Shown: piece by piece, positions 24,342 through 40,793 of the stretch | Layout: every line of letters begins with the position of its first letter | Numbering within the stretch: the stretch's first letter is position 1 | Assembly: GCA_025451835.1 (NCBI GenBank) | Contig: JANWJR010000046.1 | Span: 5,173-69,172 of the forward strand | Source of the DNA: Candidatus Acidiferrales bacterium | Lineage (GTDB): Bacteria; Acidobacteriota; Terriglobia; Acidiferrales; UBA7541 | DNA length: 64,000 nt | Reading direction: 5' to 3' | Notes under the pieces: model-generated | The model's database searches: none | Seen by the model: the letters and a program-made list of their open reading frames with translations, nothing else | Told to the model about the DNA's origin: nothing | Made by a program: the position numbers and the translations under genes

Positions 24342-24342
24342 C

Positions 24343-27309
24343 TTAGTCCTGCCGCACCTGCACTCCCGTATGCCGGCCTTGCGGCGCCTCGGAACCGACC
24401 AAGCTCTCCACGGTCGAGACCAACTGATCTTCCTGCACAGGCTTGGTCAAGAATCCTGACGCGCCTTCTTTCATCGCGCGATCGCGATGCTTCGCACCGG
24501 CTCGCGAGGTGACCACCAGCACTGGAATTTTTCGGGTGACCGGATCCTGCCGCAGATGAGCCATCAGTTCGTACCCGTTCATCCTGGGCATTTCCAGGTC
24601 CGTGATGACCAGATGGCATCCGGAGTGCGAAACAATTTCAGAGGCCTCTAGGCCGTCCGAGGCCAGCTTGACGCGATAGCCGGCTTTCTCGAGCATTCGG
24701 CCGACGAATTTCCGCACGCTGATCGAATCATCGGCAACGACTATGACGCGCTCGCTCTCGATCGCGTCAACTGCCTCGGCAGGGATCGCACCGGCAGCGA
24801 CAGCCTCCGCTCCCGGGGCGAACACGCGTGCCGCTGGTGAGGATGCAGGCAGGGCGTGCTGCTCGGCCATATCGCTGGCGGCCAAACGGTTCAGATCGAT
24901 CAACAGAATCAGGCTGCCGTCCGATGCAATCGTCGTACCGGGGAAGAGTTTGACGCGACGCAGATAGTCGCCCAGATTCTTGATAACGATTTCGTCTTTG
25001 CCGAGCACTTCGTCGACGACGACGCCAACATGTTTTCCCGCAACCTTGACGACAACCATGTGAAAGTAGCCATTGGTTGGCTCGAGCGGGGGCAGTGCGA
25101 GATGCACATCGAGGCGCACGACTTCGGTGACCACATCGCGCACGCGCGTCAACAACTTTCCGCCCACGTCCTCAATTTCTTCGGGCCGCAGCCTGCGGAT
25201 TTCTTCAATTACAGCTAGAGGTAACGCAAATTTCGACGTTCCGCAACGCACGAAGAGCGCCTGCGAAATGATTAGCGTAAGCGGGACCTTGACGGTGAAG
25301 CACGCGCCGCGCCCAATCTCGGAGCGAACTTCAATCTCGCCGTTCAGCGCGTGAACGTTCGCGCGCACGACGTCCAGACCAACGCCGCGGCCCGCAAGCT
25401 CCGTCATTGCCGATGCTGTGGTAAACCCAGGGCGGAAGATGAATTCGCGCATCTCGCGTTCCGTAAGCTCCGCCGCGGCAATTGGCGACATCTCACCGGA
25501 ATCGATGACGCTCTGTCGCACCAACTCGTAGTCAATTCCGCGCCCGTCATCTTCCACTTCGATGAAGATGTGATTGCCGCGATGATAGGCGCGCACCGCG
25601 ACGTGGCCGGTTTCGGTCTTGTCCGTTTGGCGTCGGGCCGAGACATCCTCGATTCCATGAGCGACCGCATTTCGCACGAGATGAATCAAGGGGTCGGAGA
25701 TATGTTGAATGATATTGTTGTCGAGTTCCGTGTCGGAACCTTCGAGTGAAAGCTCCACGGGCTTTCCGGTAGCATTTGAGGCATCGCGCGCCGTCCGTGA
25801 AAGCCTCGTGTACAGATTTCCAATAGGCACCATGCGGGCCGCCGTGATCTCATCTTGCAGGTGATGCGCGAGTTTGGTGAACTCGTCGATGTCGCTGTCC
25901 ACCCGGCCCATGAAGCCTTCGAGCTGGGTAAGGACTTCCGTAACATCCGCGGAAATTTCCGTAAGCGACCGCGACAAAATATTGAAATCATCGTACCGAT
26001 CCATCTCGAGTTCGCTGAATTCCAGGAGGCCGTCCGACGTGAGCGCGGACATGGACCCGAAATTCGGACGGAAAGTATCCATCTGCGGCGGATGGCTGCC
26101 AGGCACGAGCGAAGTCTGTAGCCGGCTGAATTCATGTTTCTCCTGAAAGTCGGAAATCTTCCCGCCGAGGCGCCCCTTTGAAAAAGTCAGGACCTCGACG
26201 AGTTTGGCGAGTTCGGAGAGCCGGCCAAGCATACGCGTGCGGTTGATCACCAGTTCGCCGACGGCGTTCATCATCCGGTCCAGCCGCTCAAGCGAAATGC
26301 GAACAGATTTTGCCTGTGGCAGCGCTTGCGATGCGGCTCGCCGCGAGTTCCCCGATGAAAGCATTGGTTCCGACGCCGCGCCCTGCTTTCCAGGTGCCGT
26401 TCCGGCGCCTTCAGCGAGATCTTCTTCCGGTGCCAGTTCAGAGATTCGAGCGAGGAACGGCCCAACGGCGGCGTGTATTTCTGCATCGCTCGCCCACTGA
26501 CGGTGTAAGAACTTTTTCAATACGTCCACGGACTCGAGGCATAGGTCCACGATCTCGGCGCTTGGCTGCAAAGCGCCATCTCGCATCCGCCCAATCAAAT
26601 CTTCCACGCGGTGGGCAACGGCTGCTAGCCGATGCAAGCCCACCTGTGCCGCGGAGCCCTTCACTGTGTGCATTGAGCGGAAAAGCCGGTGGATGTCTTC
26701 CGGGTTCGGGTTTCCCTCGAGCGCGAGCAGGCACTCGGTGACCGCCTGCAAATGCTCCTCAGCTTCGGGAATGAAGAATTCGAGAACCTCGGCGGGAACC
26801 TCACCATCTTCCGGCAAACTCACCGAGAATCCATTCGCATCGAATCCGCCTAGAACTGATTCGGCTTCCCTGGCATCGGCACTTGTTTCGCTGTCCGCGG
26901 TGCCGGTCGCTGGAGCCGTCGGGAACGCGAAAGAATATCGTTGCTTGAACGCAACGATATCGCCGGCTGTCTCCGCTCCCGTCGAACTAATCTGCAAGAG
27001 ATCGAATTCAAGGACGGAGATAGCATCGGAGATGAATTCGGTCAGCGGGCCGTGCATTTCCGGCGTGAGCGCGGCATTCATGGCGTAATGAAAAATGTGC
27101 GCCGTCTTGGCCGCTACCTCCGAAAAGAGCGGAAAGCCATAACTAGCAGACGTTCCGGTGAGGGTATGCGCTGCGATGTAAAGCTTTTCGAGATCCTCCG
27201 GCCGCGTGTGCGATTCTTGCAACAGACCGGAGTACTCGCGCAGATACTGGAGATGGTCCGAAGCCTCTTGAAGGAAGAGTTCGACCGATTCTTGATTTGG
27301 CCCGTTCAC
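24343..27309 (-). CDS. cheA: hybrid chemotaxis histidine kinase CheA: Hpt-Hpt-dimerisation-HATPase-CheW-REC
   Basis: Two Hpt boxes (AAHTLTGTSASYGF and SMHTVKGSAAQVGL). HLVRNAVAHGIE, DDGRGID, GRGVGLDVV, a P5 CheW-like domain, and a C-terminal REC (VVADDS, VITDLEMPRMNG, TKP). GTG 27309 forms GTGA with the cheR stop. The track ATG at 27378 would overlap cheR by 73 nt. Confidence 0.9.
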   Translation of the reverse strand: MNGPNQESVELFLQEASDHLQYLREYSGLLQESHTRPEDLEKLYIAAHTLTGTSASYGFPLFSEVAAKTAHIFHYAMNAALTPEMHGPLTEFISDAISVLEFDLLQISSTGAETAGDIVAFKQRYSFAFPTAPATGTADSETSADAREAESVLGGFDANGFSVSLPEDGEVPAEVLEFFIPEAEEHLQAVTECLLALEGNPNPEDIHRLFRSMHTVKGSAAQVGLHRLAAVAHRVEDLIGRMRDGALQPSAEIVDLCLESVDVLKKFLHRQWASDAEIHAAVGPFLARISELAPEEDLAEGAGTAPGKQGAASEPMLSSGNSRRAASQALPQAKSVRISLERLDRMMNAVGELVINRTRMLGRLSELAKLVEVLTFSKGRLGGKISDFQEKHEFSRLQTSLVPGSHPPQMDTFRPNFGSMSALTSDGLLEFSELEMDRYDDFNILSRSLTEISADVTEVLTQLEGFMGRVDSDIDEFTKLAHHLQDEITAARMVPIGNLYTRLSRTARDASNATGKPVELSLEGSDTELDNNIIQHISDPLIHLVRNAVAHGIEDVSARRQTDKTETGHVAVRAYHRGNHIFIEVEDDGRGIDYELVRQSVIDSGEMSPIAAAELTEREMREFIFRPGFTTASAMTELAGRGVGLDVVRANVHALNGEIEVRSEIGRGACFTVKVPLTLIISQALFVRCGTSKFALPLAVIEEIRRLRPEEIEDVGGKLLTRVRDVVTEVVRLDVHLALPPLEPTNGYFHMVVVKVAGKHVGVVVDEVLGKDEIVIKNLGDYLRRVKLFPGTTIASDGSLILLIDLNRLAASDMAEQHALPASSPAARVFAPGAEAVAAGAIPAEAVDAIESERVIVVADDSISVRKFVGRMLEKAGYRVKLASDGLEASEIVSHSGCHLVITDLEMPRMNGYELMAHLRQDPVTRKIPVLVVTSRAGAKHRDRAMKEGASGFLTKPVQEDQLVSTVESLVGSEAPQGRHTGVQVRQD

Positions 27310-28199
27310 AGGCTGCCCTCCATCATCAGGGCCGCTCTGCGGCTTTCCGCCAGAGCGATTTTGCGGTAAATCCGGCAACCGCCAACAACGACCGGCTCGA
27401 ATTTCACCGGAACGTTTGTAAGAGTCTCGGAATGGCCCAGGAAAAAATAACCGCCCGGCTCGAGCGCGTCGTAAAACCTGCGAAGAATCGCGAGCCGTCG
27501 TTCGTCGGAAAAATACATCAGGACGTTCATGCAGAAAATGCAGTCGAGCTTGCCGACGTACACCGATTCGGAGAGGTTCATTTGCGCGAAAGAAATCATT
27601 CGCCGAATCCGGGGCTTCACCTGGAAACCATGCTTCGTGTCTGAAAAATAAGTTTCGGCCTGTGGCAGCGAAAGATTCTGGATGCTGCGCTTGGAATAGA
27701 GGCCCCGTTCCGCATGGCGAAGCGCGCGGCGGCTGATGTCAGTGGCCAGGATTTCGATCTCCCAGGCCTCGGCGAATTTCAGCGATTCGCAAACCGTGAT
27801 GGCGATCGAATACGGCTCTTCGCCAGTCGAGCAACCGGCGCTCCAGATACGCAACGACCGCGGATTTTCCCAGAATTTTCGCTCCTGCACTTCCGGCAGA
27901 ATCTTTTTATCCAGTGCGTCGAATACGGCGGGATAGCGAACGAAGGACGTCTCCTGGGTGAGCAATCGTTCAAGCAACGCTTCATACTCGATGCTTGAAC
28001 CGCGAATCTGCCGCAACAGTGCCGTCCCGCTTGCGAGCCCTCGTTCCTCAAGATGTTCGCGCACACGAGTGGAGAAAAAACGTTCGCGCGAGGCATCGAA
28101 CAAGATTGCAGACCGCTGCTCGATCAGTCCGCGAATTTCGCCCAGCTCGGTGTCGCTGAGATTAACCGCTGTAATTGTCTGCTGTTTCATGTTCGGCAC
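27306..28199 (-). CDS. cheR: chemotaxis protein methyltransferase CheR
   Basis: 297 aa. CheR N-domain plus SAM-binding domain (IWSAGCSTGEEPYSIA, IFCMNVLMYF). Confidence 0.9.
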   Translation of the reverse strand: MPNMKQQTITAVNLSDTELGEIRGLIEQRSAILFDASRERFFSTRVREHLEERGLASGTALLRQIRGSSIEYEALLERLLTQETSFVRYPAVFDALDKKILPEVQERKFWENPRSLRIWSAGCSTGEEPYSIAITVCESLKFAEAWEIEILATDISRRALRHAERGLYSKRSIQNLSLPQAETYFSDTKHGFQVKPRIRRMISFAQMNLSESVYVGKLDCIFCMNVLMYFSDERRLAILRRFYDALEPGGYFFLGHSETLTNVPVKFEPVVVGGCRIYRKIALAESRRAALMMEGSL

Positions 28200-28234
28200 G
28201 CGTCAGGACCTGGGTTTTATGGCCGCCGCTTTGC

Positions 28235-29677
28235 TTAACGGCTTGCGCCCACAGGTGCTGGCGGTCGCGCCTCTTCCGCCTCGCCCGACCGCGATGACTG
28301 TGAACGGAATTGCGCCAGCGCTTCGTTGAGCTGCTCGGACAGCTTCACCATGTGCCCGACCGTGGAAGCTGTCTGCCGCGCGCCCTGCGTGGTTTGCCGG
28401 GTGATCCCGGAGATGATTTGCATGGCGTTGGCCACACCCTCCGTGCCGCGCACCTGCTGCTTCGACGCGAGCGAAATTTCCTGAACCAGTTCGGCCGATT
28501 GGCGCACAACGCTGGAAATCGCTTCGAGCGCTTTCCCGGCTTGGTCGGCAAGTCCCGCGCCTGCCTCCACTTCGCGTGTGCCCTCTTCCATCACGACGAC
28601 CGCTTCGTTCGTCTCCGCCTGAATTGCCTTGATGAGTGCCGCGATGTCTTTCGTCGCGCTGCGCGAGTGCTCGGCGAGCTTGCGAACTTCGTCGGCGACG
28701 ACCGCAAATCCGCGGCCGGCATCACCCGCGCGAGCCGCTTCGATGGCCGCGTTCAGTGCGAGCAGGTTGGTCTGCTCCGTGATGTCGTTAATGACGTTGA
28801 TGATCTCCGAAATTTCGAGCGAGCGATCGCCGAGGGATTTGATCTTCTTCGCTGACGCCTGCACCGATGCTCGAATGCGCTGCATTCCATCGAGCGTGTC
28901 GCGCACCGCGCGGTTACCCTGTTCGGCCGCATCGAGAGCGCGACGGGCCGCTTCGGCGCTGGCTTCCGCGTTGTTGGACACCTGTTTCATCGAAACCGTC
29001 AGCTCTTCGACAGCCGAAGAAGTATTGGTAATTTCCTGATCTTGCTGCGTGGCGCCCGCTGTCATGTCGTCGGTGGCTTCGAGAATCTGGTTGGCGCTTC
29101 CGCTGACATCGATGGCAGCTTTGCGAACACGTTCCAGAACCTTCACGAAGTTGTCCAGCATGAAGTTCACGGAGTCAACCACGTTACCAAGCGCGTCGTT
29201 AGTCACCTTGCCGCGAATGGTCAGGTCGCCGCGAGCGACCTGATTGATGGTGGTAAGCAGGTCAGTGATGCTCCGCTGCAGCGATTCTTGGGCCTGCTGA
29301 CTAGTGATCGCGTGTGCCACTTTTGCGGCGCTGCGGTTGAAGTTTTCCGCAATGAAGCCGAACTCATCATTCGACTCGACCTCTGCGCGGGCGCGCGCAT
29401 CGCCAGCGACAAGCCGTTCGGAAAATTTTGCAAGCTCGCCCACGGGTTCCAGCACGCGCTTGCTCAGCACATAAATGAGCGAAAGGGCACCAAGCACCGC
29501 TAGCGCGGCAGCTCCAAGCAAAGCTCCGCTGGCGCTTCCCGGCAAGGAAGATATGTCGAGCAGCGATAATCCACCCGAGTGCGCGCCGGCGTAGTAGGCA
29601 AGGCCTAGGACGCCGAATAACGCCACGCTGGTCCAGAAGGCCAGCAACCAGATTGTGGAACTCAAACGAGCTTTCAT
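28235..29677 (-). CDS. methyl-accepting chemotaxis protein with two TM segments, a minimal outer loop and HAMP
   Basis: Conserved signalling tip ([36 protein letters not shown]). Only about 15 residues separate TM1 and TM2. Confidence 0.9.
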
Positions 29678-29759
29678 GACATCCTCCAGGAACTTTTCCG
29701 CTTATCTGGCCAAACCCCAAATTTTTGGTGCGACATCGATAAATCAATGGGAACGTCGT

Positions 29760-30287
29760 TCATATCACCGGCACGGCAAACACTTCGGTTAAACGCCGCA
29801 GGTCAACCAAAAGCGCTAGGCGATCTTCATGGCGTAACATGCCGCGGCAATGCGGCACATCGTGCGGCGCCTGATCGAGCAGCGCGTCCTCTGTCGCCGA
29901 ATACGTCCCGATCACTTCATCCGTCGCGATGCCCACGCGCAGATCGTCACGATTTGCGTCACCTAAAATGGCGGCGACCACCACGTGTTTAGGCAACAAG
30001 CCCGGGCGACGTCCCTCCGTAAATGCGATGTCGATCAGAGGCACGATCGTTCCCCGCAGATTGAAGACTCCCATCAGGAATGCCGGAGCCAGTGGAACCC
30101 GCGTTACTAAAGGCCAGTCCACCACTTCTTCGACTTCCAGCACCGAGAGGCAAAACCGCTCCCGCCCTGCGCGAAAAACGCAGTACTGGCGCTCCGGAAG
30201 CCGCTCCTCGGAGGACGGGTCGCCTTCGAGAAATGCCCCATCGTCGAGCTCGCCGGGCAGTTGCGAGTTTTCCTGTTCCTTAGCCAT
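29760..30287 (-). CDS. cheW: CheW coupling protein
   Basis: 175 aa. Contains FCLSVLEVEEV ... LMGVFNLRGTIVPLID. TAATG junction with cheY. Confidence 0.85.
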   Translation of the reverse strand: MAKEQENSQLPGELDDGAFLEGDPSSEERLPERQYCVFRAGRERFCLSVLEVEEVVDWPLVTRVPLAPAFLMGVFNLRGTIVPLIDIAFTEGRRPGLLPKHVVVAAILGDANRDDLRVGIATDEVIGTYSATEDALLDQAPHDVPHCRGMLRHEDRLALLVDLRRLTEVFAVPVI

Positions 30288-30655
30288 TATGCGAACCTTT
30301 TCACCGCTCCGATAAGTTCCTCGGGTGTAAAAGGCTTGGCAACGAATCCGTTTGCGCCTTGCTGCTCGCCCCAGTACCGGTCGCTCGGCGCCGTCTTCGA
30401 TGTGACCAGGATCACGGGAATCTGGGAATAATTAGCCTGGTTCTTCAGATCGCGGCACACTTGAAAGCCGTTCCTGGCTGGCATCACGACGTCCAGCAGA
30501 ATCAGATTCGGACGTTCTTCCTCGATCGCTTCTTCGACTTTGGTCGGATCGGAAATTCCAACCGAATGAAATCCGCCTTGCTGCAAGAATGATTGGATAA
30601 GATGAACCTCGGCGGGCGAGTCATCGACGATCAATATTTTCTTCACCACAGCCAT
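30287..30655 (-). CDS. cheY: CheY-like single-domain response regulator
   Basis: KILIVDDS, LILLDVVMPARNG, VTSK, AKPF. The start is ATG 30655 or one of the GTG codons just downstream. The track start at 30697 is upstream of the putative promoter. Confidence 0.85.
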   Translation of the reverse strand: MAVVKKILIVDDSPAEVHLIQSFLQQGGFHSVGISDPTKVEEAIEEERPNLILLDVVMPARNGFQVCRDLKNQANYSQIPVILVTSKTAPSDRYWGEQQGANGFVAKPFTPEELIGAVKRFA

Positions 30656-30684
30656 GCCTCCACACTGATATCCGGTGAGAGAAA

Positions 30685-30700
30685 TGCAAGTCCGCAACCA
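30685..30700 (-). promoter_or_regulatory. candidate sigma54 (-24/-12) promoter in front of cheY-cheW-mcp...
   Basis: The minus strand reads TGGTTG-CGGAC-TTGCA. GG and GC have the exact consensus spacing (TGGCAC-N5-TTGCW) and the -12 box is perfect. It lies 30 nt upstream of ATG 30655 in an 87-nt intergenic gap. Confidence 0.4.
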
Positions 30701-30782: not shown

Positions 30783-31481
30783 CTAGCCAGCATCAACCCG
30801 CAGAGACACTACTTCCGTCTCAGCTTGAGAATCTTTCTCACCAGCACGCATTTCCGCCGCCAGCGATGAGAATCGTTGCATGATTTCGTTGAGCCGCAGC
30901 GCCATCGTGTGAATCGTCTCGATTTGGTCGCGGCTTTCCGCAGACATGTAGCCGGGCTCAAGCAAAAGCAAGTCGGCGTTTCCGAGCACCGAGGTAAGCG
31001 CGTTATTCACGCTCGGCCGCATTTCAAGCATGTATTTGCCAAGCGTGGCTTGGCCTTGGCTTTCCAGAGCAAGCTTCTCAGCGCGCTGAGCGCGACCGGC
31101 CGCTTCTGTCCGTCGAAGTGCTTCACTGGAAATGAGGATCAAGGTCCCCGCCCAACCATCGTGACGGGGCACGACAAGTACGTATGGATGTTCGGCCCGA
31201 AACAGTGCAACGTCCGTTTGATCCTCGGCAACGTAGATGACCACAGAAGATGAAGAAATCCTCAAGAACGCGAGAATCGTAGCGGGACTGCCCGTGCGGA
31301 CAGGCCCCAGAATGACGATCTGATATCCGGCAGCGCTGCCTGCATGGCAAACGCCGCTGGCAATCAGTGTGATTTCGGGTACGTGGCGCTCCGTCTGCCA
31401 GCGGGCGACAACGGAACGCGAAAATTCCGTGTCGTCCGATACAATCAGGACGCTGGATTGGTTCAAGTGAGACGACCTCAT
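30783..31481 (-). CDS. pseudo-receiver + His-less DHp-like coiled-coil protein (no ATPase domain)
   Basis: 232 aa. REC-like strand pattern (VLIVSDD, QIVILGP, VVIYVAE, VLVVPR) without an acceptor Asp. A HisKA-like helix LEMRPSVNNALTSVLGNADLLLLEP has Leu at the phospho-His position. Confidence 0.5.
   Translation of the reverse strand: MRSSHLNQSSVLIVSDDTEFSRSVVARWQTERHVPEITLIASGVCHAGSAAGYQIVILGPVRTGSPATILAFLRISSSSVVIYVAEDQTDVALFRAEHPYVLVVPRHDGWAGTLILISSEALRRTEAAGRAQRAEKLALESQGQATLGKYMLEMRPSVNNALTSVLGNADLLLLEPGYMSAESRDQIETIHTMALRLNEIMQRFSSLAAEMRAGEKDSQAETEVVSLRVDAG
30816..30822 (-). promoter_or_regulatory. TGAGACG heptamer, candidate activator-binding element
   Basis: The plus strand reads CGTCTCA. 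The element is about 120 nt upstream of the 30700 -24 element. It pairs with AGAGAC on the other strand at 30802-30807 (GAGAC/GTCTC inverted, 9-nt spacer). Confidence 0.3.
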
Positions 31482-31490
31482 CCCATTGCC

Positions 31491-33068
31491 TTAGGGTTGG
31501 AGCTTTTCTGCTTCCTCGATAACGGAAAGCAGACGCTTGGTGCTGATTCCGAGATTTACAGCAGCTTCCGTGTTTTTCGCGCGCTTTGCCGTTTCGACGC
31601 GCCCTTGGAAATAGGAAACTTCGCCGCGAGCAAGCGCTAAGGCAGACCCCAACCGAGTCAGGTCTCCCGAGCGCTTTCGCACATCCATGGCAACAGCAAG
31701 GAGAGCACGGGCCACGACGGCGCGGCGCAAATCTTCCGCCTCCTGATCTCCTTCCGTCACAAAGGCAGCCACTTCCCACGATGAGAGCAGCACTTTCGTA
31801 TCTTGCAGCACGACCGTGGACATCGAACGTCCTCGGGATGGCGGCGCGGCTATCAATTGCTCCCAAATCGAATCCAGACACTTTTCTGCATCGATTGGCG
31901 GAGCAGCGGAAGTCGCGTCAGTTCCGGGTTTCGCGGCCTTGATTGCTCCAGCAGAAGGTGCTTCGTTCGGAACAGGGGCTGCCTGATCTGCATGCATCTC
32001 TTCCGGCTTTGCGGCCGCAAGTAATGGCGGCAAATCGTCCGAACGAACATTCGCGGATGCGGAAACCTGATCGCCCCGAGTTTCTTCATTTTCATGAGCT
32101 TCTATCGCAAAAAACTGCTGCGTAGCCGCGGAATGAACGCGCACCAGCGCCTCTTCGAGATCGGCCCGCAATGCAAAGAGCTGGTCGAAAGCACGGGTAA
32201 CCGAATTTTCGGTGTAGTCCTTATGAAAAGGCTGACGCCAGTTCTCGCAATAATACCGGAGTTGCGTAGTTGTCTCTGCCGCGGAGAACCCGGCGCGCCG
32301 GCAGTCCACTGTTTTTACACCGCTCGCATCCAGGTGCTCGACGGCCGCCTTCATCGCGTTCAAATCCGCATGAAGCATGCGGATGAAAGCTCGCCGGAGC
32401 CGAAAGTTAAAGCGGCAGAAAGCAACGAGAGCGGCCGGATCGTAAAACATCTGACCCGCCGAATCCTTCAACAGACGCCCCTGTTCAAGGACACCATGCT
32501 CCATCATGTCGCGAAGGCTCTGGCAGTTTTCGAGCGTGTTGAGGATTTCATCGAGTGGCGCGCACCACTCGACGGGCGTGGAATCCGCTGCGCCAAGCAC
32601 CGGCTGGAGAACTCGCGCGACATCCGCCAGGCTGAACTCGCTGCGATAAAGCTCCTCGGGAGCGCACAAAGCGAAGTACTGGACCAGTAGCAGGTCGATC
32701 TTGTCCCGATCGGCTGAAGCTTTCTCCGGCTTCTTCAACTGACGCTGCAGAAACGCGCGAAGGCTGGCTTCGCTTGCATTCAGGATCTCGGGAGGAAGCT
32801 GCCGAATCTGAAAGGCACGGACCTTTTCGTCGATCGTATTGAGCCATTCCAAATCGCGATCGAATATCTCACGCGTCGGGCGTGCCGGCGGCAGCTCCCC
32901 GGCAGCGTAAAGCAACGCTACCAAATCGAATTGTGCGGCAAGCGCCGCATAGAGTGGGTACGCAAGGCGCGCCTCGTTCCACATGGTAGCCGGGTCGACA
33001 GTAACACTCGATTTTGATTTGTTCGTGCCGGCCAGAGAATTTATCGGAATCGGAGTTTTTATCGTCAT
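31491..33068 (-). CDS. hypothetical protein, 525 aa, no recognisable domain
   Basis: Long ORF with ordinary coding composition and no TM segments. Central Ala/Pro/Asp-rich low-complexity stretch. ATG 33068 forms an ATGA overlap with the upstream small ORF. Confidence 0.6.
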   Translation of the reverse strand: MTIKTPIPINSLAGTNKSKSSVTVDPATMWNEARLAYPLYAALAAQFDLVALLYAAGELPPARPTREIFDRDLEWLNTIDEKVRAFQIRQLPPEILNASEASLRAFLQRQLKKPEKASADRDKIDLLLVQYFALCAPEELYRSEFSLADVARVLQPVLGAADSTPVEWCAPLDEILNTLENCQSLRDMMEHGVLEQGRLLKDSAGQMFYDPAALVAFCRFNFRLRRAFIRMLHADLNAMKAAVEHLDASGVKTVDCRRAGFSAAETTTQLRYYCENWRQPFHKDYTENSVTRAFDQLFALRADLEEALVRVHSAATQQFFAIEAHENEETRGDQVSASANVRSDDLPPLLAAAKPEEMHADQAAPVPNEAPSAGAIKAAKPGTDATSAAPPIDAEKCLDSIWEQLIAAPPSRGRSMSTVVLQDTKVLLSSWEVAAFVTEGDQEAEDLRRAVVARALLAVAMDVRKRSGDLTRLGSALALARGEVSYFQGRVETAKRAKNTEAAVNLGISTKRLLSVIEEAEKLQP

Positions 33069-33436
33069 GGTTTGATAATCCAATTGCCCACTTCGCTCAC
33101 AAAGCGAGCTGCCACAGCTTTCCGGCCATCGTGATATCTCACGGCGACCACCGTCGCATTCGCATCGAGCGACCCATCGGAATTCACTAGCCGCAACCGG
33201 TCTTCGAATTCGAGCGGCAACACAGAAGGAAACAGCACCTCCTGCGCCGTGCCAAACTCGATCACCGTCTGCTCCTGCAATCGCCTACTGGAACCCAGCG
33301 CCACGACGCGCACCGGAATGTGAATTGCCGATACGTTCAAGAAAAGCTGAGCGAGTTTTTCAACGCAGCTTTGCCCGAGAGAAATAGTTGCTGTTTCCAA
33401 TTCGCGTGGCACAGAGGCCCCCGTCCGCCACCTCAT
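33065..33436 (-). CDS. small hypothetical protein, possibly a degenerate PilZ-like beta-barrel
   Basis: ATG 33436 is preferred: the track start at 33529 is a TTG upstream of the putative promoter. The stop is coupled (ATGA) to the next gene. The beta-rich segment IPVRVVALGSS...LRLVNSDGSLDANATVVAV lacks a canonical RxxxR. Confidence 0.4.
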   Translation of the reverse strand: MRWRTGASVPRELETATISLGQSCVEKLAQLFLNVSAIHIPVRVVALGSSRRLQEQTVIEFGTAQEVLFPSVLPLEFEDRLRLVNSDGSLDANATVVAVRYHDGRKAVAARFVSEVGNWIIKP

Positions 33437-33512
33437 CAAACCCGCCAGCCGTGTGTTGGCGGCAAGGACAGAACGACGTAGATGGGCACGGCGTTTCTTC
33501 GAGCAGAGAGAT

Positions 33513-33528
33513 TGCACGAGCAAGGCCA
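33513..33528 (-). promoter_or_regulatory. candidate sigma54 (-24/-12) promoter in front of the orphan trio
   Basis: The minus strand reads TGGCCT-TGCTC-GTGCA, the same pattern as the 37776 site (TGGCAT-GGCCC-GTGCA). An overlapping alternative register CGGCTT-N5-TTGCT lies at 33519-33534. Confidence 0.4.
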
Positions 33529-33609
33529 AAGCCGTGCGCGCGGCTAGGTTGGCAACCGCTTGAAATCAAATGGATTACGCAGAGGCCGATGAGGGCTTAC
33601 GGCGGTGGC

Positions 33610-33637
33610 GTCTCAGCCTGATACGAATTCGTCTCAC
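33610..33637 (-). promoter_or_regulatory. two TGAGACG heptamers 21 nt apart, one inside a near-palindrome GAGACGAATTCGTATC
   Basis: The plus strand reads CGTCTCA at 33610-33616 and 33631-33637. ACGAATTCGT (33624-33633) is a perfect 10-nt palindrome. The elements are 88-109 nt upstream of the 33528 -24 element. Confidence 0.35.
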
Positions 33638-33684
33638 GTCCCCGAGAGGCGGGGCAATCGCTGCGGCGAACCTGGCAGCCGAAA

Positions 33685-33708
33685 TAGCGTCGTCTCAAAG
33701 ACGAGCTA
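33685..33708 (-). terminator. hairpin overlapping the EBP stop codon; weak intrinsic terminator or palindromic protein-binding site
   Basis: The RNA would read UAGCUCGUCU-UUG-AGACGA(C)GCUA followed by UUUCGG: 10 bp with one bulge and only 3 U. It also contains a third TGAGACG copy (33691-33697 on the plus strand as CGTCTCA). Confidence 0.3.
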
Positions 33709-35112
33709 CGGGAGGACTTTGACTTCCAAAGTTTCTGCGTGCGGCGACTGCGCGGGAATCTGGTAGCGCTTCAGCTTTCGATAGAGTGTGGCGCGGCTGA
33801 TACCGAGCATTTTCCCTGCGAGGGCTTTGTCCCCGCCCGCTTGCTCGAAAACGCGCAGGATCGTCATGCGTTCGAGATCCGCAAGGGCTGTTGTGGATAG
33901 CTCAGCCGTTTCAGCAGCTACCGGGCCGTCGTCTGGAGTTGCACGGACATTGGGAGGGAGATCGCCCAGATCAATAACACGGTGGTCGCCCAGAGCGACT
34001 GCCCGCGCGATGCAATTTTCGAGCTCCCGGACGTTTCCCGGCCAATCGTATTGGAGAAAGCTCTTCATGGTCGCCGGGGTGACTTGAATGTTCTCTCCCG
34101 GCGCGTAGCGGTCCAGAAAACAATGAACGAGCTGCGGAATATCGGAGCGCCGCTCGCGCAACCCCGGAAGGTGCACTGTTACAACGTTCAGCCGGAAATA
34201 CAGGTCCTTGCGGAAGGTGCCAGCGCGATACGCGGCCTCGAGGTCGCGATTCGTGGCGGCGATAACGCGGACGTCCACAGGGATTTTTTGATTGCTGCCA
34301 ACGGGCCGCACTTCTTTTTCCTGCAGGACCCGCAGTAGCTTCGCCTGCATCTCGAGCGGCAGTTCGCCGATTTCGTCAAGAAAGATGGTTCCGCCATTCG
34401 CGGCGTAAAAGAGTCCAGCTTTTGATTTGAGCGCGCCGGTGAACGAGCCTTTTTCGTGGCCGAACAGCTCGCTTTCCATCAGCGTAGGGACCAGAGCGCC
34501 ACAATCGACTGCGATGAACGGCATCTGTGCCAGCGGCCCGCGGAAGTGAATCGCCCGGGCCACTAGCTCTTTTCCCGTCCCGCTCTCGCCACTAATGAGC
34601 ACCGGCGTGCGCGTTTCCTTCAGGCGCGAGACCATCCGCATCACATCTTGAACTTTGGCGGACGTGCCTGCGATTCCATCGAGTTGCGCATCCGTCTCGA
34701 TGCGCTCGCGCAGAAACTGATTTTCCGTCACCAGCCGGACTTTCTCGGCCATGCGCTGCAGGAGTTGCCGCAATTTCTCGACGCGGAACGGCTTTTCAAT
34801 GTAATCGTAAGCGCCCTGACGCATCGCATCGACGGCAGATTCGATCGAGCCGTGTCCCGTCATTATCGCAATTTCCGTGCGCGGGAGATTCTCTTTCACC
34901 TTTCGGAGCAAGTCCGTGCCGGAAAGGCTGGGTAACTTCAGGTCCGTCACCACCAGATCCGGTGGAGACGTTTCCAACATCTCCAGCGCCGTTTCCGCGT
35001 TTTCGGCCTCCGCGCACACATACCCAAGGCCCTGCCCGACAGTCATGCAAAGCCGGCGGATGCTTTGCTCGTCGTCCACAATTAGAAAGCGCAGGTGTAT
35101 TTCGTCCCTCAT
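33706..35112 (-). CDS. sigma54-dependent NtrC-family response regulator (REC-AAA+-Fis HTH)
   Basis: [43 protein letters not shown], and C-terminal [16 protein letters not shown] 35112 overlaps the upstream stop as ATGA. Confidence 0.9.
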
Positions 35113-35516
35113 GGCTGGCCAATCGTTTTTTCGACCGCGCTCAGGAGTTGTTGAACGCGGAAGGGCTTTTCGACGCACGGCGTGCCTGCCTGCGCGAGCA
35201 GCGCGATCGTCTCATCGCTGGCCGTGTCGCCCGTGATGAAGACGATTCGCGAGGCCAGTTCCGGGCGATGCCGGCGAATCCAGTCATGCACATCCGTTCC
35301 GGTGATTCCTCCTGGTGTTCGGAAATCTGAAATCACGCCGTTGAACTTCTCAGCGGCAAGCAATCGCAGCCCTTCGGCCGCCGAGCATGACGGAACCACT
35401 TCGTAACCACGCCGCTCGAGAGCAATTCGCAGAAACGCCGCCACCGATGCCTCATCCTCAATCACCAGAATGCGGCTGCGGCCGGCGGCAGCTACCGTGT
35501 CGCGCCCGCCCCTCAT
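35109..35516 (-). CDS. single-domain response regulator (canonical REC)
   Basis: ILVIEDE, VISDFRTPGG, FITGD, EKPF. ATG 35516 overlaps the kinase stop as ATGA. Confidence 0.8.
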   Translation of the reverse strand: MRGGRDTVAAAGRSRILVIEDEASVAAFLRIALERRGYEVVPSCSAAEGLRLLAAEKFNGVISDFRTPGGITGTDVHDWIRRHRPELASRIVFITGDTASDETIALLAQAGTPCVEKPFRVQQLLSAVEKTIGQP

Positions 35517-37501
35517 TGCGCCATCTCGGCTGAGAGAGATTGCATCGCGTCGTTCGCTGCGGGCAGGCGAACCAGGAACGTGCAGCCAGGTCCATTGGAA
35601 TTGTTCTGGGCAAGAATTTCGCCGTGATGCGCCTGCACGATTCCGTAGCAAATGCTCAGGCCGAGCCCGGTGCCTTTTCCCACTTCTTTTGTGGTGAAAA
35701 AAGGATCGAAGATACGATCGGGCTGCGCAATGCCGGGACCGTTGTCGCGGAAAAGAATTTCAAGATGGCCCCCACGCCGCAACGTCTCGATTTCGATTTT
35801 TCCGGATCGCCGCGTTTCATGCACGGCGTCGTACGCATTATTCAGTATGTTCAAGAACACCTGCTGCAATTGATGCGGATCGCCGACGGCAAGCGGCAGG
35901 TCCTCATCGTACCGCTCCACCACCTCCACGCCGTGATTCGAAAAATCGTAAGCGCGCAACTTCATCGTCTGCCGCAGAACAGAATTCACTTGCAAGGGCT
36001 CGCGCTGCGCCGGCATCTGGCGTGCAAAGCTTAGAAGATTTTGGACGATCACGCGAGTGCGCTGCGCTTCTTGCAAAATCACGCGCAGTTCCTCCTTGGC
36101 CTCTTCCGGTATCCCAGGATTCTCCAGAAGCAAATCCGTGAAGCCGACAATCGCGGCCAGCGGATTGTTCACTTCGTGCGCCACGCCGGACACGAGTTGG
36201 CCCAGCGCCGCCATTTTTTCAGTATGCATAAGCTTCGCCTGCAGGTCGGCGGCATCCGTAATATCCGTCATCACCACAACGATGCTGTTGATATCTCCCT
36301 GCTCGTCTTTCATCGGGCTGAGGCTGATGGAGAACTGCCCGGCCGTGCCATTCGCGCGCAGCAAAGGAATTTCGATATTGCCGCCCGCAGTTCCGTCCAG
36401 CGTTCGGCGCAGTGCTTCAGCGAGCAGCGGCCGTCTGGCGACCGGGACTCGTTCGACCAGTGGACGCCCTAACAGATCCTGTTCCTTATATCCCGCTTCG
36501 AAGCAGCGGCGATTCGCATAGCTGACGAGCCCCGCCGTGTCCAGCACGAGAATCATGCTTTCGGTGTTGTTCAGAATGTTCTTGTTAAAGTCGCGTTCGC
36601 GACGGTACCGCCGCTCGGCCTCGCGGCGGTCCGTAATGTCCTTCAGAACGTGGATCGTTCGCAATTCGTCATCGAGCCCGTTGTGGATGCGCGCGGAAGA
36701 AACCAAATAGAGTTTTTCGGCGGCTTCGTGAACAAATTCTTCACGGCCGGCTTTCACATCGCGACAGAACGGACAGCGGGCCGATTGTGCTGGCGTCCCA
36801 AGGATGCCGAGTTTGCCGATGTCCCGGCCCACGGCCTCGGGGGGCCGCACCGCAAGGAGTTCGGCGAGTGAGTGATTTAGACGCAGGACTCGATTGGCTG
36901 CGTCATGAACGACGATGTAGTCCGAAATAGCATCGAAGTCTTCCACCCATTGTTTTCGTGATTGCTCGATCCGCGAGAATAGCCGGACGTTCTCGAGCGC
37001 GACGGAAGCGTGGCTCACGAGAGCCTCAAGTAACTGTGCCTCGGCATCCGGCAGTTCGCGTGTCAGATCCACAAGGCATAGGACACCCAGCAAAGCGCCA
37101 TCGCTCCCTATCAATCTCGCTAGAACCAGGGCGTGCCATCCGAGAGCTTCGGCCAGTTCGATTCCCAGAGCTTTGGCGGCTGATACCGGCCGCAAGTCCA
37201 CTCCCGGAATCGCACAGAGTTGTCCCAGCAGGCCCGCCAGCCTGCGTTGCACTGAGGTATCCCAATGCTGCGCAGGACCGCTCAAAGCCCCCATATCCCA
37301 GTCGGCGCCGCGCGTCAGCACTAGCACCGAAGCACGTGCGCCCAGGATTTCGGCGGCTCGCATCGTCAACCTGCGCGCAAACTCCTGCGTGCCAACGGAT
37401 GGGTTCAGCTCAAGTGTTGTCGCGGAGAATTGCCCTAGCAGCGTCTCAAATGACCCATCGAGGCGCGAGGGTGCTTCCCGGGTTCGTTTTAGCGCACGCA
37501 T
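35513..37501 (-). CDS. cytoplasmic sensor histidine kinase (GAF-PAS-PAS-HisKA-HATPase)
   Basis: 662 aa, no TM segments. H-box HEVNNPLAAIVGFTDLL, N-box LNILNNAYDA, G-boxes RDNGPGI and GTGLGLSI. Confidence 0.9.
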   Translation of the reverse strand: MRALKRTREAPSRLDGSFETLLGQFSATTLELNPSVGTQEFARRLTMRAAEILGARASVLVLTRGADWDMGALSGPAQHWDTSVQRRLAGLLGQLCAIPGVDLRPVSAAKALGIELAEALGWHALVLARLIGSDGALLGVLCLVDLTRELPDAEAQLLEALVSHASVALENVRLFSRIEQSRKQWVEDFDAISDYIVVHDAANRVLRLNHSLAELLAVRPPEAVGRDIGKLGILGTPAQSARCPFCRDVKAGREEFVHEAAEKLYLVSSARIHNGLDDELRTIHVLKDITDRREAERRYRRERDFNKNILNNTESMILVLDTAGLVSYANRRCFEAGYKEQDLLGRPLVERVPVARRPLLAEALRRTLDGTAGGNIEIPLLRANGTAGQFSISLSPMKDEQGDINSIVVVMTDITDAADLQAKLMHTEKMAALGQLVSGVAHEVNNPLAAIVGFTDLLLENPGIPEEAKEELRVILQEAQRTRVIVQNLLSFARQMPAQREPLQVNSVLRQTMKLRAYDFSNHGVEVVERYDEDLPLAVGDPHQLQQVFLNILNNAYDAVHETRRSGKIEIETLRRGGHLEILFRDNGPGIAQPDRIFDPFFTTKEVGKGTGLGLSICYGIVQAHHGEILAQNNSNGPGCTFLVRLPAANDAMQSLSAEMAQ

Positions 37502-37775: not shown

Positions 37776-37791
37776 TGGCATGGCCCGTGCA
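37776..37791 (+). promoter_or_regulatory. candidate sigma54 (-24/-12) promoter of the second che operon
   Basis: TGGCAT-GGCCC-GTGCA against the consensus TGGCAC-N5-TTGCW, with exact spacing. It lies 48 nt upstream of ATG 37839, whose GGAGGGG RBS is at 37827-37833. Confidence 0.45.
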
Positions 37792-37838
37792 ATTTGTACT
37801 GCAGGAGAGTTTGTCCTCATTCAATGGAGGGGTATGTA

Positions 37839-38189
37839 ATGAAACGGAGACTGCGAGTGCTGGGATTGGGGCTTTCGTTACTGCTTGGGGCAACGGCGGT
37901 CGCGCCTCCCAAGCTGGCGGCTCAGGATGACTCCTTGGCATCCGCGAAGCGGAAGGTGCGAACCCGCGTAACGCCGGATTATCCCTTGCTGGCAAAACAA
38001 ATGAACGTCGCCGGCAAGGTCAAGATTGAAACTACAATTTCGGCGGACGGCCATGTGACGAACACGAAAGTAGTGGGCGGCAGCCCGCTGCTTGTAAACG
38101 CTGCCATGGAAGCTGTGAAGAAATGGCGGTTTGAGCCGGCGGCGAAAGAGTCCACCGAAATCGTCGAATTCGACTTTGGCGGCAATTAG
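37839..38189 (+). CDS. secreted TonB C-terminal domain protein
   Basis: 116 aa. Signal peptide MKRRLRVLGLGLSLLLGATAVA. TonB_C pattern (PDYPLLAKQMNVAGKVKIETTISADGHV...AVKKWRFEP). No TM anchor or Pro-rich spacer. Confidence 0.7.
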   Translation: MKRRLRVLGLGLSLLLGATAVAPPKLAAQDDSLASAKRKVRTRVTPDYPLLAKQMNVAGKVKIETTISADGHVTNTKVVGGSPLLVNAAMEAVKKWRFEPAAKESTEIVEFDFGGN

Positions 38190-38244
38190 AACTTCTTGAA
38201 TGCGCTGGGGCGTTCCTGCGGGGCAAGGAGTGGAGGCGTTGCAC

Positions 38245-40245
38245 ATGACAATTGGCAAGAAATTATATTTCGGGTTTGGCGCCATCCTGGTGGCGATGCT
38301 GATTCTGTTCATCATCAACATTTTCACCGTGACGCGCGAATACAACGCACGCTCGGCCGCCGCGGCGACTCTGTCCGACGTTCAGTCGATCGAAGACATT
38401 CGCTTCGAGATGATGGAGAACCGACTGAACTTGGGCAACTATCTTCTTAGCGGCGATCTGCGCGATGAGGACAAGACCAACCATGGCATCAACCATCTGC
38501 TCGATCTTGTAAAGCAGGAGGAGACCAAGGCTAGTGATCCAACTCTGCGATCTTCACTTTCGCAAGTGGAGGAGAACGAGCGAAGCTGGTCGGACAATTT
38601 TGCGAAACAGATGATCGCCAAGCGTCATCAGGTGGATGCGGGCGACATTACCGTGTCGGACCTGCAGATTTTTTATTTGCAGCACGATCCCGCCTCCTGG
38701 ACCACGAAATCCTCCGGCGTGCTTGACGACGCAAATCAATCCGTACGCAAGGCTTTGGATGATTCCAATGCGTCGGCGGCGGCCGCAACGCGGTGGAGCA
38801 CAATCATCACGACTCTCGGCACCTTCCTCGCCATGGTTTTCGGCTGGTTCATAGCGTTCCGCACGGCCAAGTCCATCAAGGATCCGATCTATCACCTAAT
38901 TGATGTCGCGCACCGCATCGGGGAGACCGGCGATCTCGATCAATCCATCGATATCCACCGCGATGATGAGGTCGGCATTCTCGCGGCAAATTTCAACAAG
39001 ATGATCACGCACCTGAAAGATATGGCCGGAGTCTCGGCTGCAATCGCTGAAGGCCAGTTGCAGGTCACGATCCAGCCCCGCTCGGCGCAGGACACAATGG
39101 CGCGCGCGTTCGCACGAATGACGCAGGGGCTTCGCGACATCGTGCGCCAGGTTCGAGATAGCGCGTCGCAGGTGGCAAGCGGCGCAGGCCAAATGGCCAG
39201 CGCTTCGGATGAATCGGCAAAGGTTAGCGTGCAAGCAGCCTCCGCCATCGATGAAGTTACGAGCACGATGCATGAAATGAGCATCAACGTGCAGAACGTG
39301 GTGAAGAACACTCAGGTGCAGGCTTCCAGCGTCGCGGAAACTTCGGCGTCCATCGATCAGATGGTGACATCGATTCAGCGCGTCGCGGACACAGCGAAAC
39401 TTCTCGTCGATATCTCTCATCGCTCGCGCGAAGAAGTGCAAACCGGCATGGGAACGATGGAGAAAGCCACCGAGGGCCTGAATCGCACCAGCACCGCGAT
39501 TCAATCATCCGCGGAAATTATCGATGTGCTGGGGCGGCGTGCCGACGACATTGGCAAGATTATCGAAGTGATCGATGATCTTGCCGAACAGACCAATCTG
39601 TTAGCCCTCAACGCAGCCATAGAAGCGGCTCGGGCGGGCGAGCATGGACTTGGGTTTGCCGTGGTCGCCGAGGAAGTTCGCAAGCTGGCGGAAAAGTCCA
39701 CGCAATCCACAAAGGAAATTTCGGAACTGATCCAGGGCATTCAAAAGGAAGCCCGCGAAGCCGTCGAGAACATGGACAAGAGCACCAGCATGGTCCAGGA
39801 AGGGCTGGTGCTCAATAAGGATCTCAGCTTCGCGCTTGAGAAAATCTCGAACGTGGTTGCGGAGGTCTATAAATTTTCCCAGGAGATCGGCGCGGCTACC
39901 ATGGAACAATCCAGCGGCTCGTCGCAAATCGCCAAAGCAACCAACCGTCTTACGGAAATCACGCAAGAGATCAACTCATCGGTCGAAGAGCAGGCTTCCG
40001 GCGCGCAGGCCGTGGTTCGCGCAATGGAAAAGATGCGCGAACTTGTCCAGCAATCTACTTCCAGCTCGACGGAGCTCGCGGCAGCCGCCGAGCAGATGTC
40101 GAAGCTTTCGCGGGCGCTGCTTGAATCGATGGACCGGTTTATTCTCGATGATGGTCACGCAGATTCGAGACGCTATCCAAGCAAGCGAACGTTCGGAAAC
40201 GAACGTCCGGCTCCAGTTGAATACGCTGAGGTTGCCCGCTCGTGA
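38245..40245 (+). CDS. methyl-accepting chemotaxis protein (periplasmic helical sensor, HAMP)
   Basis: TM1 (FGAILVAMLILFIINIF), a periplasmic region of about 170 aa, TM2, HAMP, and the signalling tip [36 protein letters not shown]. Confidence 0.9.
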   Translation: MTIGKKLYFGFGAILVAMLILFIINIFTVTREYNARSAAAATLSDVQSIEDIRFEMMENRLNLGNYLLSGDLRDEDKTNHGINHLLDLVKQEETKASDPTLRSSLSQVEENERSWSDNFAKQMIAKRHQVDAGDITVSDLQIFYLQHDPASWTTKSSGVLDDANQSVRKALDDSNASAAAATRWSTIITTLGTFLAMVFGWFIAFRTAKSIKDPIYHLIDVAHRIGETGDLDQSIDIHRDDEVGILAANFNKMITHLKDMAGVSAAIAEGQLQVTIQPRSAQDTMARAFARMTQGLRDIVRQVRDSASQVASGAGQMASASDESAKVSVQAASAIDEVTSTMHEMSINVQNVVKNTQVQASSVAETSASIDQMVTSIQRVADTAKLLVDISHRSREEVQTGMGTMEKATEGLNRTSTAIQSSAEIIDVLGRRADDIGKIIEVIDDLAEQTNLLALNAAIEAARAGEHGLGFAVVAEEVRKLAEKSTQSTKEISELIQGIQKEAREAVENMDKSTSMVQEGLVLNKDLSFALEKISNVVAEVYKFSQEIGAATMEQSSGSSQIAKATNRLTEITQEINSSVEEQASGAQAVVRAMEKMRELVQQSTSSSTELAAAAEQMSKLSRALLESMDRFILDDGHADSRRYPSKRTFGNERPAPVEYAEVARS

Positions 40246-40760
40246 GGACGCCAATGCCACTCATGGATAAGGACATCCAGATCGTCGGGTTTCGAATCGG
40301 ACGTGAAACCTTCGGACTCCCCATTTCCCTAGTTCGGGAGATCGTTCGCGTTCCGGAGATTACGTCCGTTCCAAATGCCCCCGATTACATCGAAGGCGTA
40401 ATCAACCTTCGCGGGCGCATCATTCCGGTAGTCGATCTACGCAAGCGTTTCGGCGAAATGATCGAGGCAAGCACGAAGAACCGGATCGTGGTGGTGGAGA
40501 TGGAAAGCCGCTTCATCGGCTTGATGGTGAATTCTGCTTCAGAAGTGCTCCGCCTGCCGCCTTCGGAAATCGAAGCGCCGCACAGTGTCTTTCAGGACGG
40601 TGAACTGAACTTCATTACCGGAGTCGGAAAGTTAAAGGGCCGCCTTGTGATTCTGCTGGATTTGAACCGAGTTCTTCAGCGTGGCGAACTGCGTAGCCTC
40701 GACGACTTGGCCGAGTCCGCAGCGATGGTTCCTGCTGGCGGCGTGGCGCGAAATCGTTAG
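40242..40760 (+). CDS. cheW: CheW coupling protein
   Basis: Contains FGLPISLVREI ... IEGVINLRGRIIPVVDL. GTG 40242 forms a GTGA overlap; an alternative ATG lies at 40254. Confidence 0.85.
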   Translation: MRTPMPLMDKDIQIVGFRIGRETFGLPISLVREIVRVPEITSVPNAPDYIEGVINLRGRIIPVVDLRKRFGEMIEASTKNRIVVVEMESRFIGLMVNSASEVLRLPPSEIEAPHSVFQDGELNFITGVGKLKGRLVILLDLNRVLQRGELRSLDDLAESAAMVPAGGVARNR

Positions 40761-40793
40761 AAGAAATCCGAGAACGCACATGACGGGGGACGA

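Follow-up and report, generated by a model that had tools for sequence, protein, structure and literature searches.

The stretch of Candidatus Acidiferrales DNA analysed here (contig JANWJR010000046.1; 64,000 nucleotides (nt), called the window as a whole) carries three tightly packed genes on the minus strand, named a, b and c in their order of transcription, between the gene for an NtrC-type sigma-54 activator and cheY, where a chemosensory core begins. Gene a (33065-33412) encodes 115 amino acids (aa) from a GTG start, gene b (31491-33068) 525 aa and gene c (30783-31481) 232 aa. An initial annotation of the window had described this trio as a signalling accessory without assignable function. 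All three open reading frames (ORFs) are present, and the position between activator and cheY is confirmed by Pfam matches in the neighbouring genes. The trio holds two unannotated protein families, and we regard it as highly probable that it forms a co-regulated accessory module of two-component and chemosensory signalling in the island made up of the NtrC-type activator and the che genes. Taken as a whole, what the annotation observed is confirmed, while its interpretation is partly supported.

The ATG of gene b overlaps the TGA of gene a as ATGA at 33065-33068. The translational coupling read from this overlap is borne out by its conservation in 111/119 loci, and a conserved overlap of 4 nt suggests that proteins a and b are produced stoichiometrically. 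Genes b and c are separated by 9 nt in the window, as had been noted, and across loci this spacer is short and of variable length. Protein a had been given about 123 aa. This length corresponds to an ATG at 33436, which is a possible alternative start, but nearly all homologues, which are 115-116 aa long, point to the GTG at 33412 and thus favour the shorter protein. A third candidate, a 154-aa ORF with a TTG start, was ruled out because it would take in the promoter P1 of the trio.

Comparison of the window with eight orthologous loci, with the ratio of non-synonymous to synonymous changes (dN/dS) taken from pN/pS by Nei-Gojobori counting, gives values of about 0.05-0.2 for a, b and c. These are somewhat above those of CheY, CheW and NtrC (0.03-0.1) in the same comparison. 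Metagenomic homologues number from hundreds to thousands for each of the three proteins, with about 4,200 hits for c, and the named ones belong to 'Candidatus Acidiferrales' or Acidobacteriota. The three are clearly real genes under purifying selection, and the lack of conservation that would have spoken against the annotation is ruled out by the low ratios and the thousands of metagenome homologues.

The gene order around the trio is very stable. When a single genome was scanned for each species, 56 trio loci were recovered, all from one order of Acidobacteriota, and in every one of them the genes run NtrC-a-b-c-CheY-CheW-MCP-CheR-CheA-CheB-CheW-REC_PATAN. A profile search with b among 1.84 billion representatives gave 597 clusters at an expectation value (E) <=0.001, 279 of them below 1e-30. 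The contexts of distant b members, together with a metagenome scan seeded with distant members, supplied 86 further loci. Gene b still lies beside a and/or c in 74 of these, at about 32-48% identity to b of the window, and stands alone in unrelated surroundings in the other 12.

The most constant partner of the trio is the NtrC-type activator, which adjoins it in 93/95 testable loci (53/53 in the genomes and 40/42 in the diverse set). The che core follows in 55/55 genome loci, and CheW or a methyl-accepting chemotaxis protein (MCP) lies downstream in 37/43 testable diverse loci, where CheY is next to c in 38/54 and the kinase and single-domain receiver are found in 30/31. The alternative that the trio is not syntenic with signalling genes is clearly ruled out by these counts. 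The view of the trio as a distinct and conserved accessory module of the signalling locus is supported, and synteny with the NtrC-type activator and the CheA-REC cluster persists down to about 32-45% identity of b. All trio-bearing loci seem to come from one phylum.

Several variants depart from this order. Six species (L041-L046) are without the GAF-PAS kinase and the single receiver and retain the NtrC gene, the trio and the che genes. No cheY is found between c and cheW in L069-L079 and L110, so that cheW comes directly after c. In L132 (5540-8637), and likewise in L099, L120, L124, L140 and L142, gene a, a short b and c are followed by CheR alone; the adjoining core of CheY, CheW, MCP and CheA is missing and NtrC is retained upstream. 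The short b of L132 has 340 aa and consists of the N-terminal domain only. Gene a is missing in L061, and a metagenome contig (L077, 5926-8887) has two b paralogues of 416 and 558 aa as convergent neighbours.

The trio is preceded by a sigma-54 type -24/-12 promoter, P1 (TGGCCTTGCTCGTGCA, 33513-33528, minus strand), with the conserved pattern TGG[CT]-N7-[GT]TGC[AT], in line with the consensus of such promoters (TGGCAC-N5-TTGCW-like, GG at -24 and GC at -12). Within the window alone such a motif is close to chance, with 4 matches where 2.1 would be expected. In the interval from the NtrC gene to gene a, however, 54/54 loci from genomes and 60/63 of the diverse metagenomic ones have it, and the annotated promoter is therefore upheld by its conservation in 114/117 loci. 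The spacer sequence varies among loci while the element and its spacing stay fixed; in L041-L046 the promoter is a distinct variant (TGGTCC.CTTATTGCA).

Upstream of P1, a putative activator-site region (33610-33697, minus strand) contains TGAGAC half-sites at 33692-33697, 33631-33636 and 33610-33615, the middle one as part of TGAGAC-N6-GTATCA. TGAGAC is the most widespread hexamer in the region from -180 to -40 of P1, with at least one copy in 114/114 loci and at least two in 108/114, and the conserved repeats lie 80-170 nt upstream of the promoter.

A second sigma-54 type promoter, P2 (TGGTTGCGGACTTGCA, 30685-30700, minus strand), precedes cheY and the chemosensory genes. The gap between c and cheY contains it in 56/56 genome loci, and 45/54 of the diverse loci have it after c. 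The position of P2 after c and before cheY delimits the trio, which is predicted to be a sigma-54 transcription unit of its own, with the che genes driven from P2. A scan of the region for sigma-70 promoters and terminators gave nothing above background, and read-through from the trio into the che genes is possible since c is not followed by a convincing terminator. A CTGAGAC element (30817-30823, minus strand) within the 3' end of gene c falls in the codons for ..QAETE.. and is likely to be an upstream activator site of P2. Its wobble positions are conserved, and the conserved C-terminal tail of c may for that reason reflect a constraint on the DNA rather than on the protein. Over the whole window CTGAGAC shows no over-representation, so the significance of the element rests on its conservation across species.

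A third -24/-12 element, P3 (TGGCATGGCCCGTGCA, 37776-37791, plus strand), which also has TGAGAC sites upstream, precedes a TonB_C-like gene and a second che cluster; 53/53 related genomes conserve it. The alignments show TGAGAC elements conserved upstream of P1, P2 and P3 alike. We infer a common regulon under one enhancer-binding protein, which would most economically be the adjacent NtrC-type activator, and the shared element points to a regulon that takes in, besides the trio, the TonB_C-like gene and the second che cluster.

Protein c is the member of the trio that can be related to known domains. An AlphaFold2 (AF2) model built from a 47-sequence alignment (mean confidence, pLDDT, 79.7) has a receiver-like (beta-alpha)5 domain at residues ~9-110 (31152-31457, minus strand), with strands at 10-14, 36-40, 55-58, 80-85 and 102-105 and helices between them. 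Its last helix, alpha5 (110-144), runs on into a HisKA-type DHp hairpin at residues ~146-231 (30789-31046, minus strand) formed by helices 146-174 and 181-231. The best Foldseek match in the PDB is LvrB of Leptospira (8vc9), a REC-DHp-CA protein, at E 8.6e-5; further matches are receivers, including CheY, HupR, PmrA and KdpE. Profile searches of the PDB with the c alignment gave nothing significant, and Pfam Response_reg does not match c. Pfam HisKA (PF00512) matches at E=0.0054 and 17.2 bits, under the curated cutoff of 26.9 bits, and in BLASTP the hairpin and the DHp of the adjacent kinase show 32% identity across 75 aligned residues (E=2e-7). By these matches and the predicted fold, the hairpin is a true HisKA relative. 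The proposal of a receiver-like N-terminal half and a HisKA/DHp-like C-terminal half thus stands. No HATPase_c domain was matched in Pfam and NCBIfam scans, and the protein ends at residue 232, after the second DHp helix, in agreement with the claimed lack of an ATPase domain; orthologues have 221-251 aa.

In the model, Gly59 (codon 31305-31307) follows strand beta3 (55-58) at the position of the phospho-Asp, just where the annotation had placed a Gly. Gly occupies this column in 47/47 close and in 57/60 distant sequences (104/107), the rest having Ser or Ala and never Asp. The acidic pair after beta1 is kept, with Asp16 invariant and Asp or Glu at position 17. After beta5 there is V-P-R/Q/L and no conserved Lys, with positions assigned from the model.

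The residue that takes the place of the phospho-His had been named incorrectly. The His of the kinase motif AHEVNNPL aligns with Pro156 in RPSVNNAL of c (codon 31014-31016), four residues downstream of the Leu that had been proposed. In the clade of the window this column holds Pro in 46/47 sequences and Ala in 1/47. All 58 orthologues outside the clade (L057, L061, L069-L142) keep the His, in an H-box of the form (R/K)-H-(S/G/T)-x-N-N-A-L-T-S. The position after the His (H+1) is Ser157 in the window, is Ser, Gly or Thr in nearly all c sequences and is never acidic. Position H+4 is Asn160, with Asn in 39/47 and Asp in 8/47 close relatives and Asn in 57/57 distant ones.

Since 58/58 orthologues outside the clade retain it, the phospho-His was lost secondarily and in one lineage, the one to which the window belongs. 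The c family ancestrally combines a pseudo-receiver with a DHp that contains the His and lacks an ATPase domain. Protein c is a degenerate derivative of histidine kinase and receiver parts and a member of neither group: it is no histidine kinase because the His, the ATPase domain and an acidic H+1 are all absent, and no classical receiver because the defining phospho-Asp is absent. To call it catalytically dead, as was done initially, is correct in that both phospho-acceptors are absent in the clade of the window. For the family the term does not hold, given the His in the other orthologues, and even for the clade it may be too strong, since the Asn at H+4, which HisKA phosphatase activity needs, is retained. 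Ser at H+1 and Asn at H+4 together give c a predicted kinase-off, phosphatase-capable signature.

Two characterised proteins share this build. In LvrB the alpha5 helix of an N-terminal receiver likewise runs into a HisKA-type DHp hairpin, and CheS3 of Rhodospirillum centenum has the same receiver-DHp arrangement and acts in a Che-like cascade (PMC3868531). Unlike these Rec-controlled kinases, c stops after the DHp, its receiver Asp is replaced by Gly, H+1 is Ser and, in the clade of the window, Pro stands where the His would be. Receiver folds that have lost the phospho-acceptor, bind partners or ligands and are joined to a helical dimerisation element are also known from KaiA and FrzS. A pseudo-receiver like that of c is found in REC1 of ShkA as well (PMC7010744). 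The Foldseek results contain no sequence or specific structural match between c and KaiA, FrzS or ShkA, and c differs from these regulators in having a true HisKA homologue, not a generic coiled coil, as its C-terminal part.

Protein b consists of two helical domains joined by a linker. The N-terminal all-helical domain, residues ~26-326 (32091-32993, minus strand; pLDDT 80-90 in the AF2 model), has the signature DRDK(I/L)D(L/F)LLVQYFA and is the most conserved part across the 597 clusters. The Ala/Pro-rich linker, residues ~327-391 (31896-32090, minus strand), is predicted to be disordered (pLDDT <50 for residues 323-391), and in the alignment it is unconserved and variable in length. The C-terminal domain, residues ~394-522 (31503-31889, minus strand; pLDDT ~85-94), is made up of one helix, a beta-hairpin and three long helices and is nearly invariant in the clade. 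The picture of a protein with a central Ala/Pro-rich linker and no recognisable motif agrees with these data. Pfam and NCBIfam scans of b gave no match, PDB profile searches with clade and diverse alignments gave none of significance, and no Pfam family at E<=10 was common to more than a few of 47 diverse homologues. The best Foldseek match of the model in the PDB had E 0.05, and the matches were only designed helical repeats and generic helical proteins. No fused known domains were found in the long homologues (600-785 aa), the annotation of distant clusters gives nothing beyond 'hypothetical protein', and no catalytic signature was seen in b.

Three more specific assignments of b were considered and dropped. 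One source labels a few b homologues as histidine phosphotransfer (HPt) proteins, but Pfam Hpt (PF01627) is unsupported among the 47 diverse members, the C-terminal helical domain has no conserved His and no HPt protein appeared in the PDB profile searches. A FimL-like identity, suggested by size, linker and the Pil-Chp-like gene order, is without sequence or fold evidence. A metal or Fe-S site was suggested by four Cys that are invariant in the clade, but these are not conserved across the wider family.

Protein a has no relative in Pfam, NCBIfam or PDB profile searches with clade and diverse alignments, and no Pfam family at E<=10 is common to more than a few of its 56 + 24 homologues. The searches for known families that could have placed a (by profile) or b (by profile and structure) elsewhere therefore matched none.

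The genes on both sides of the trio complete the island. Upstream lie the NtrC-type activator, with REC, AAA+ and HTH_8 domains (33706-35178, minus strand), a single-domain receiver (ORF 35109-35651, minus strand) and beside it a GAF-PAS-HisKA-HATPase kinase (35513-37501, minus strand). The last two are presumed to be the kinase arm of the activator. As listed, the receiver ORF shares 139 nt with the end of the kinase gene; its true start is probably internal because the receiver domain begins near residue 61. The chemosensory core downstream of the trio (22690-30697, minus strand), identified by Pfam and synteny, encodes CheY, CheW, an MCP with two transmembrane segments and HAMP, CheR, a CheA with a C-terminal receiver (CheA-REC), CheB and a second CheW.

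The core is followed by genes for a REC-PATAN (DUF4388) protein (21429-22337, minus strand), in which the receiver is N-terminal, the opposite order to PatA, and for a 248-aa receiver protein (20686-21432, minus strand) with no Pfam match in its C-terminal half. A transglutaminase-like gene comes next. On the opposite strand to the trio are the TonB_C-like gene (37794-38189, plus strand) and the second che cluster, encoding MCP, CheW, CheR, CheA, CheB, CheY and CheX (38200-45859, plus strand). A gene for a 288-aa protein with a C-terminal PilZ domain (45917-46783, minus strand) is convergent with the end of this cluster. The remaining genes of the window belong to unrelated metabolism and transport.

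From this arrangement a role for the trio can be outlined. The adjacent NtrC-type activator would switch on P1, P2 and P3 through the shared TGAGAC sites, and the trio would supply the island with an accessory set of adaptors that are non-enzymatic and independent of phosphorylation. A dimer of c would be unable to autophosphorylate, having no ATPase domain, no acidic H+1 and, in the clade of the window, no His, and its receiver would not be phosphorylatable with Gly59 in place of the Asp. Instead, c may dock a receiver domain on its DHp helices and either shorten the phosphoryl lifetime of that receiver or sequester or mask it, with the pseudo-receiver as the regulatory handle. A scaffold or decoy function, as proposed initially for c, is plausible. 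The prime candidate target is the NtrC-type activator, because it alone of the receiver proteins is always present beside the trio; CheY, CheA-REC and CheB are alternatives. Protein b, with its two helical domains and flexible linker, could serve as a scaffold and a as its stoichiometric partner. Its context suggests a scaffold or adaptor, an assignment for b made with low confidence. As a whole, this explanation, an accessory operon driven by the activator in which c docks a receiver, is the best we can offer and falls a little short of an even chance of being right. The specific phosphatase or docking role of c is doubtful, although possible.

The phosphatase side of this role draws on mutagenesis of histidine kinases. 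In CrdS, HK853 and others the acidic residue at H+1 is required for kinase activity only, and Asn or Thr at H+4 for phosphatase activity only (PMC3510030). CrdA~P had a half-life of 53.5 min alone, 0.7 min with wild-type CrdS and 2.6 min with a CrdS in which the His was changed to Ala, a change that cost it little phosphatase activity (PMC3510030). CrdS E372A and the equivalent HK853 variants have the kinase-off, phosphatase-on residue pattern that c carries naturally (PMC3510030). These variants, however, are engineered full kinases that keep the CA domain, while c is natural, CA-less and without the Pro at H+5. That one clade has lost the His and kept the remainder of its H-box is more in keeping with docking or phosphatase action than with phosphotransfer.

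Several observations weigh against such a role. Protein c could be phosphorylated in the 58/58 orthologues outside the clade that keep the His. At H+5 it has Ala and not Pro, and mutation of this Pro lowered the phosphatase activity of CrdS (PMC3510030). The phosphatase activity of PleC needs the His, as cited in PMC3510030, and Asn160 is replaced by Asp in 8/47 close relatives. In the BLASTP alignment the specificity positions of the DHp match those of the adjacent kinase at 2/5 sites, so that a target shared by c and this kinase is not indicated. Lastly, b homologues stand alone in unrelated neighbourhoods, so b need not be specific to Che systems.

The strongest alternative, which we nevertheless consider unlikely, is that c proteins are CA-less histidine phosphotransfer proteins, with the DHp used as in Spo0B or ChpT, in a phosphate relay from the CheA-REC hybrid kinase (His-Asp) to the NtrC-type activator (His-Asp). 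The His-less c of the window clade would then be a degenerate remnant or a dominant decoy. The conserved His outside the clade would be explained, CheA carries the C-terminal receiver that a relay could use, and the NtrC gene adjoins the trio nearly always (93/95). Che-like pathways whose output is of the NtrC type or a REC-kinase are also known (PMC3147164, PMC3868531). A pure phosphotransfer protein, however, should not outlive the loss of its His, and the His-less clade is large and diversified; its dN/dS is about 0.1-0.2, and apart from the His its H-box is intact. In addition, H+1 is never acidic in c, and most genomes already have a dedicated kinase for the activator at the locus.

A lesser probability is given to c as an inhibitor that forms a DHp heterodimer with the adjacent GAF-PAS kinase and so blocks or modulates phosphorylation of the activator. 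The model here is RetS, a large hybrid kinase of the membrane whose action goes through the DHp and not by phosphotransfer (on this type of action see also PMC12148439), to which the action of c can be likened. The similarity of the two DHp domains at the locus (32% over 75 residues, E=2e-7) fits this proposal, as does the fact that c has none of the parts it would require to be catalytic itself. HisKA domains of the HEVNNPL-type subfamily are very widespread, however, and the similarity is therefore unspecific. Furthermore, a, b and c are retained in L041-L046, where the kinase that would be the partner and the single-domain receiver are absent.

The surroundings of stand-alone b genes bring in cyclic di-GMP (c-di-GMP). 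In L060 (4387-6261) a stand-alone b is directly abutted by the gene for a 93-aa canonical PilZ protein, in L066 (1406-4324) PilZ and a minimal HisKA-HATPase kinase precede b, and in L059 a REC-PilZ protein is encoded 4 kb from b. In position, the coupled gene a upstream of b is a mirror image of the PilZ gene that L060 has downstream of b. One JGI contig has b between a PAS protein and a soluble MCP; other stand-alone b genes adjoin murJ or serA. These contexts point again to signalling. In a c-di-GMP effector unit, a would be a diverged PilZ-like barrel on the scaffold b and c the link to receivers; this we rate as improbable, on a level with the RetS-like inhibitor.

The replacement of a by a canonical PilZ protein beside stand-alone b is in favour of this unit, as is the precedent of ShkA, a case of a pseudo-receiver that binds c-di-GMP (PMC7010744). 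Against it, protein a itself shows nothing of PilZ: the motifs RxxxR and D/NxSxxG are absent by inspection, Pfam PilZ (PF07238) matches 1/56 members at E=0.16 and 0/24 diverse members, and hhalign comparison of the a profile with a PilZ protein and with a five-sequence PilZ alignment gave probabilities of 0.09% and 0.57%, both <1%. Among the neighbouring genes of the locus Pfam finds no cyclase or phosphodiesterase.

That the trio is unrelated to signalling and owes its position to inherited gene order is very improbable: the restriction to one phylum means that part of the synteny is phylogenetic inertia, and b homologues do occur in unrelated contexts, but the linkage outlasts both the divergence of b (to ~35-45% identity) and the loss of cheY, of the kinase or, with cheR kept, of the che core, the sigma-54 promoter type and the TGAGAC sites are common to the trio and the che operons, and c is built of two-component signalling domains.

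The locus as a whole can be compared with the Che3-CrdS/CrdA system of Myxococcus xanthus, which likewise combines a Che-like cluster, a classical kinase and an NtrC-type sigma-54 activator. The genetic linkage of a che cluster with a sigma-54 activator is found here as well (NtrC 93/95, che core 55/55 and 37/43). In the M. xanthus system the control point is dephosphorylation of the activator (PMC3147164). Che3 is without CheY and CheA3 itself destabilises CrdA~P (PMC3147164), whereas in the trio loci CheY is usually present. No counterparts of a, b and c are described for Che3-CrdS/CrdA, while here a three-gene operon is placed between the activator and the che genes. A bolder version, which we think unlikely as it stands, would make a-b-c an undescribed device that couples a chemoreceptor array to a sigma-54 activator. 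In it c would be a stand-alone DHp phosphatase whose pseudo-receiver is switched by b and a, possibly with a second messenger as input, and it would set the phosphoryl lifetime of the activator or of CheY without itself acting as a kinase.

Acidobacteriota rank with the most abundant bacteria of soils, and hardly any work has been done on their signalling. What is gained for them is a delimited, deeply conserved three-gene unit with a predicted sigma-54 regulon and TGAGAC as its candidate operator. Protein b, with about 600 clusters at 50% identity and no neighbour in Pfam or the PDB, is a candidate for a new domain definition, and protein a is a second unannotated family without a Pfam model. 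Protein c is a natural CA-less HisKA stalk with a residue pattern that mutagenesis has tied to 'phosphatase only' behaviour, and the loss of the phospho-His in one clade constitutes a direct evolutionary test of whether the His is dispensable for DHp function. If the docking or phosphatase role is true, c would represent a new type of auxiliary regulator for two-component and chemosensory pathways.

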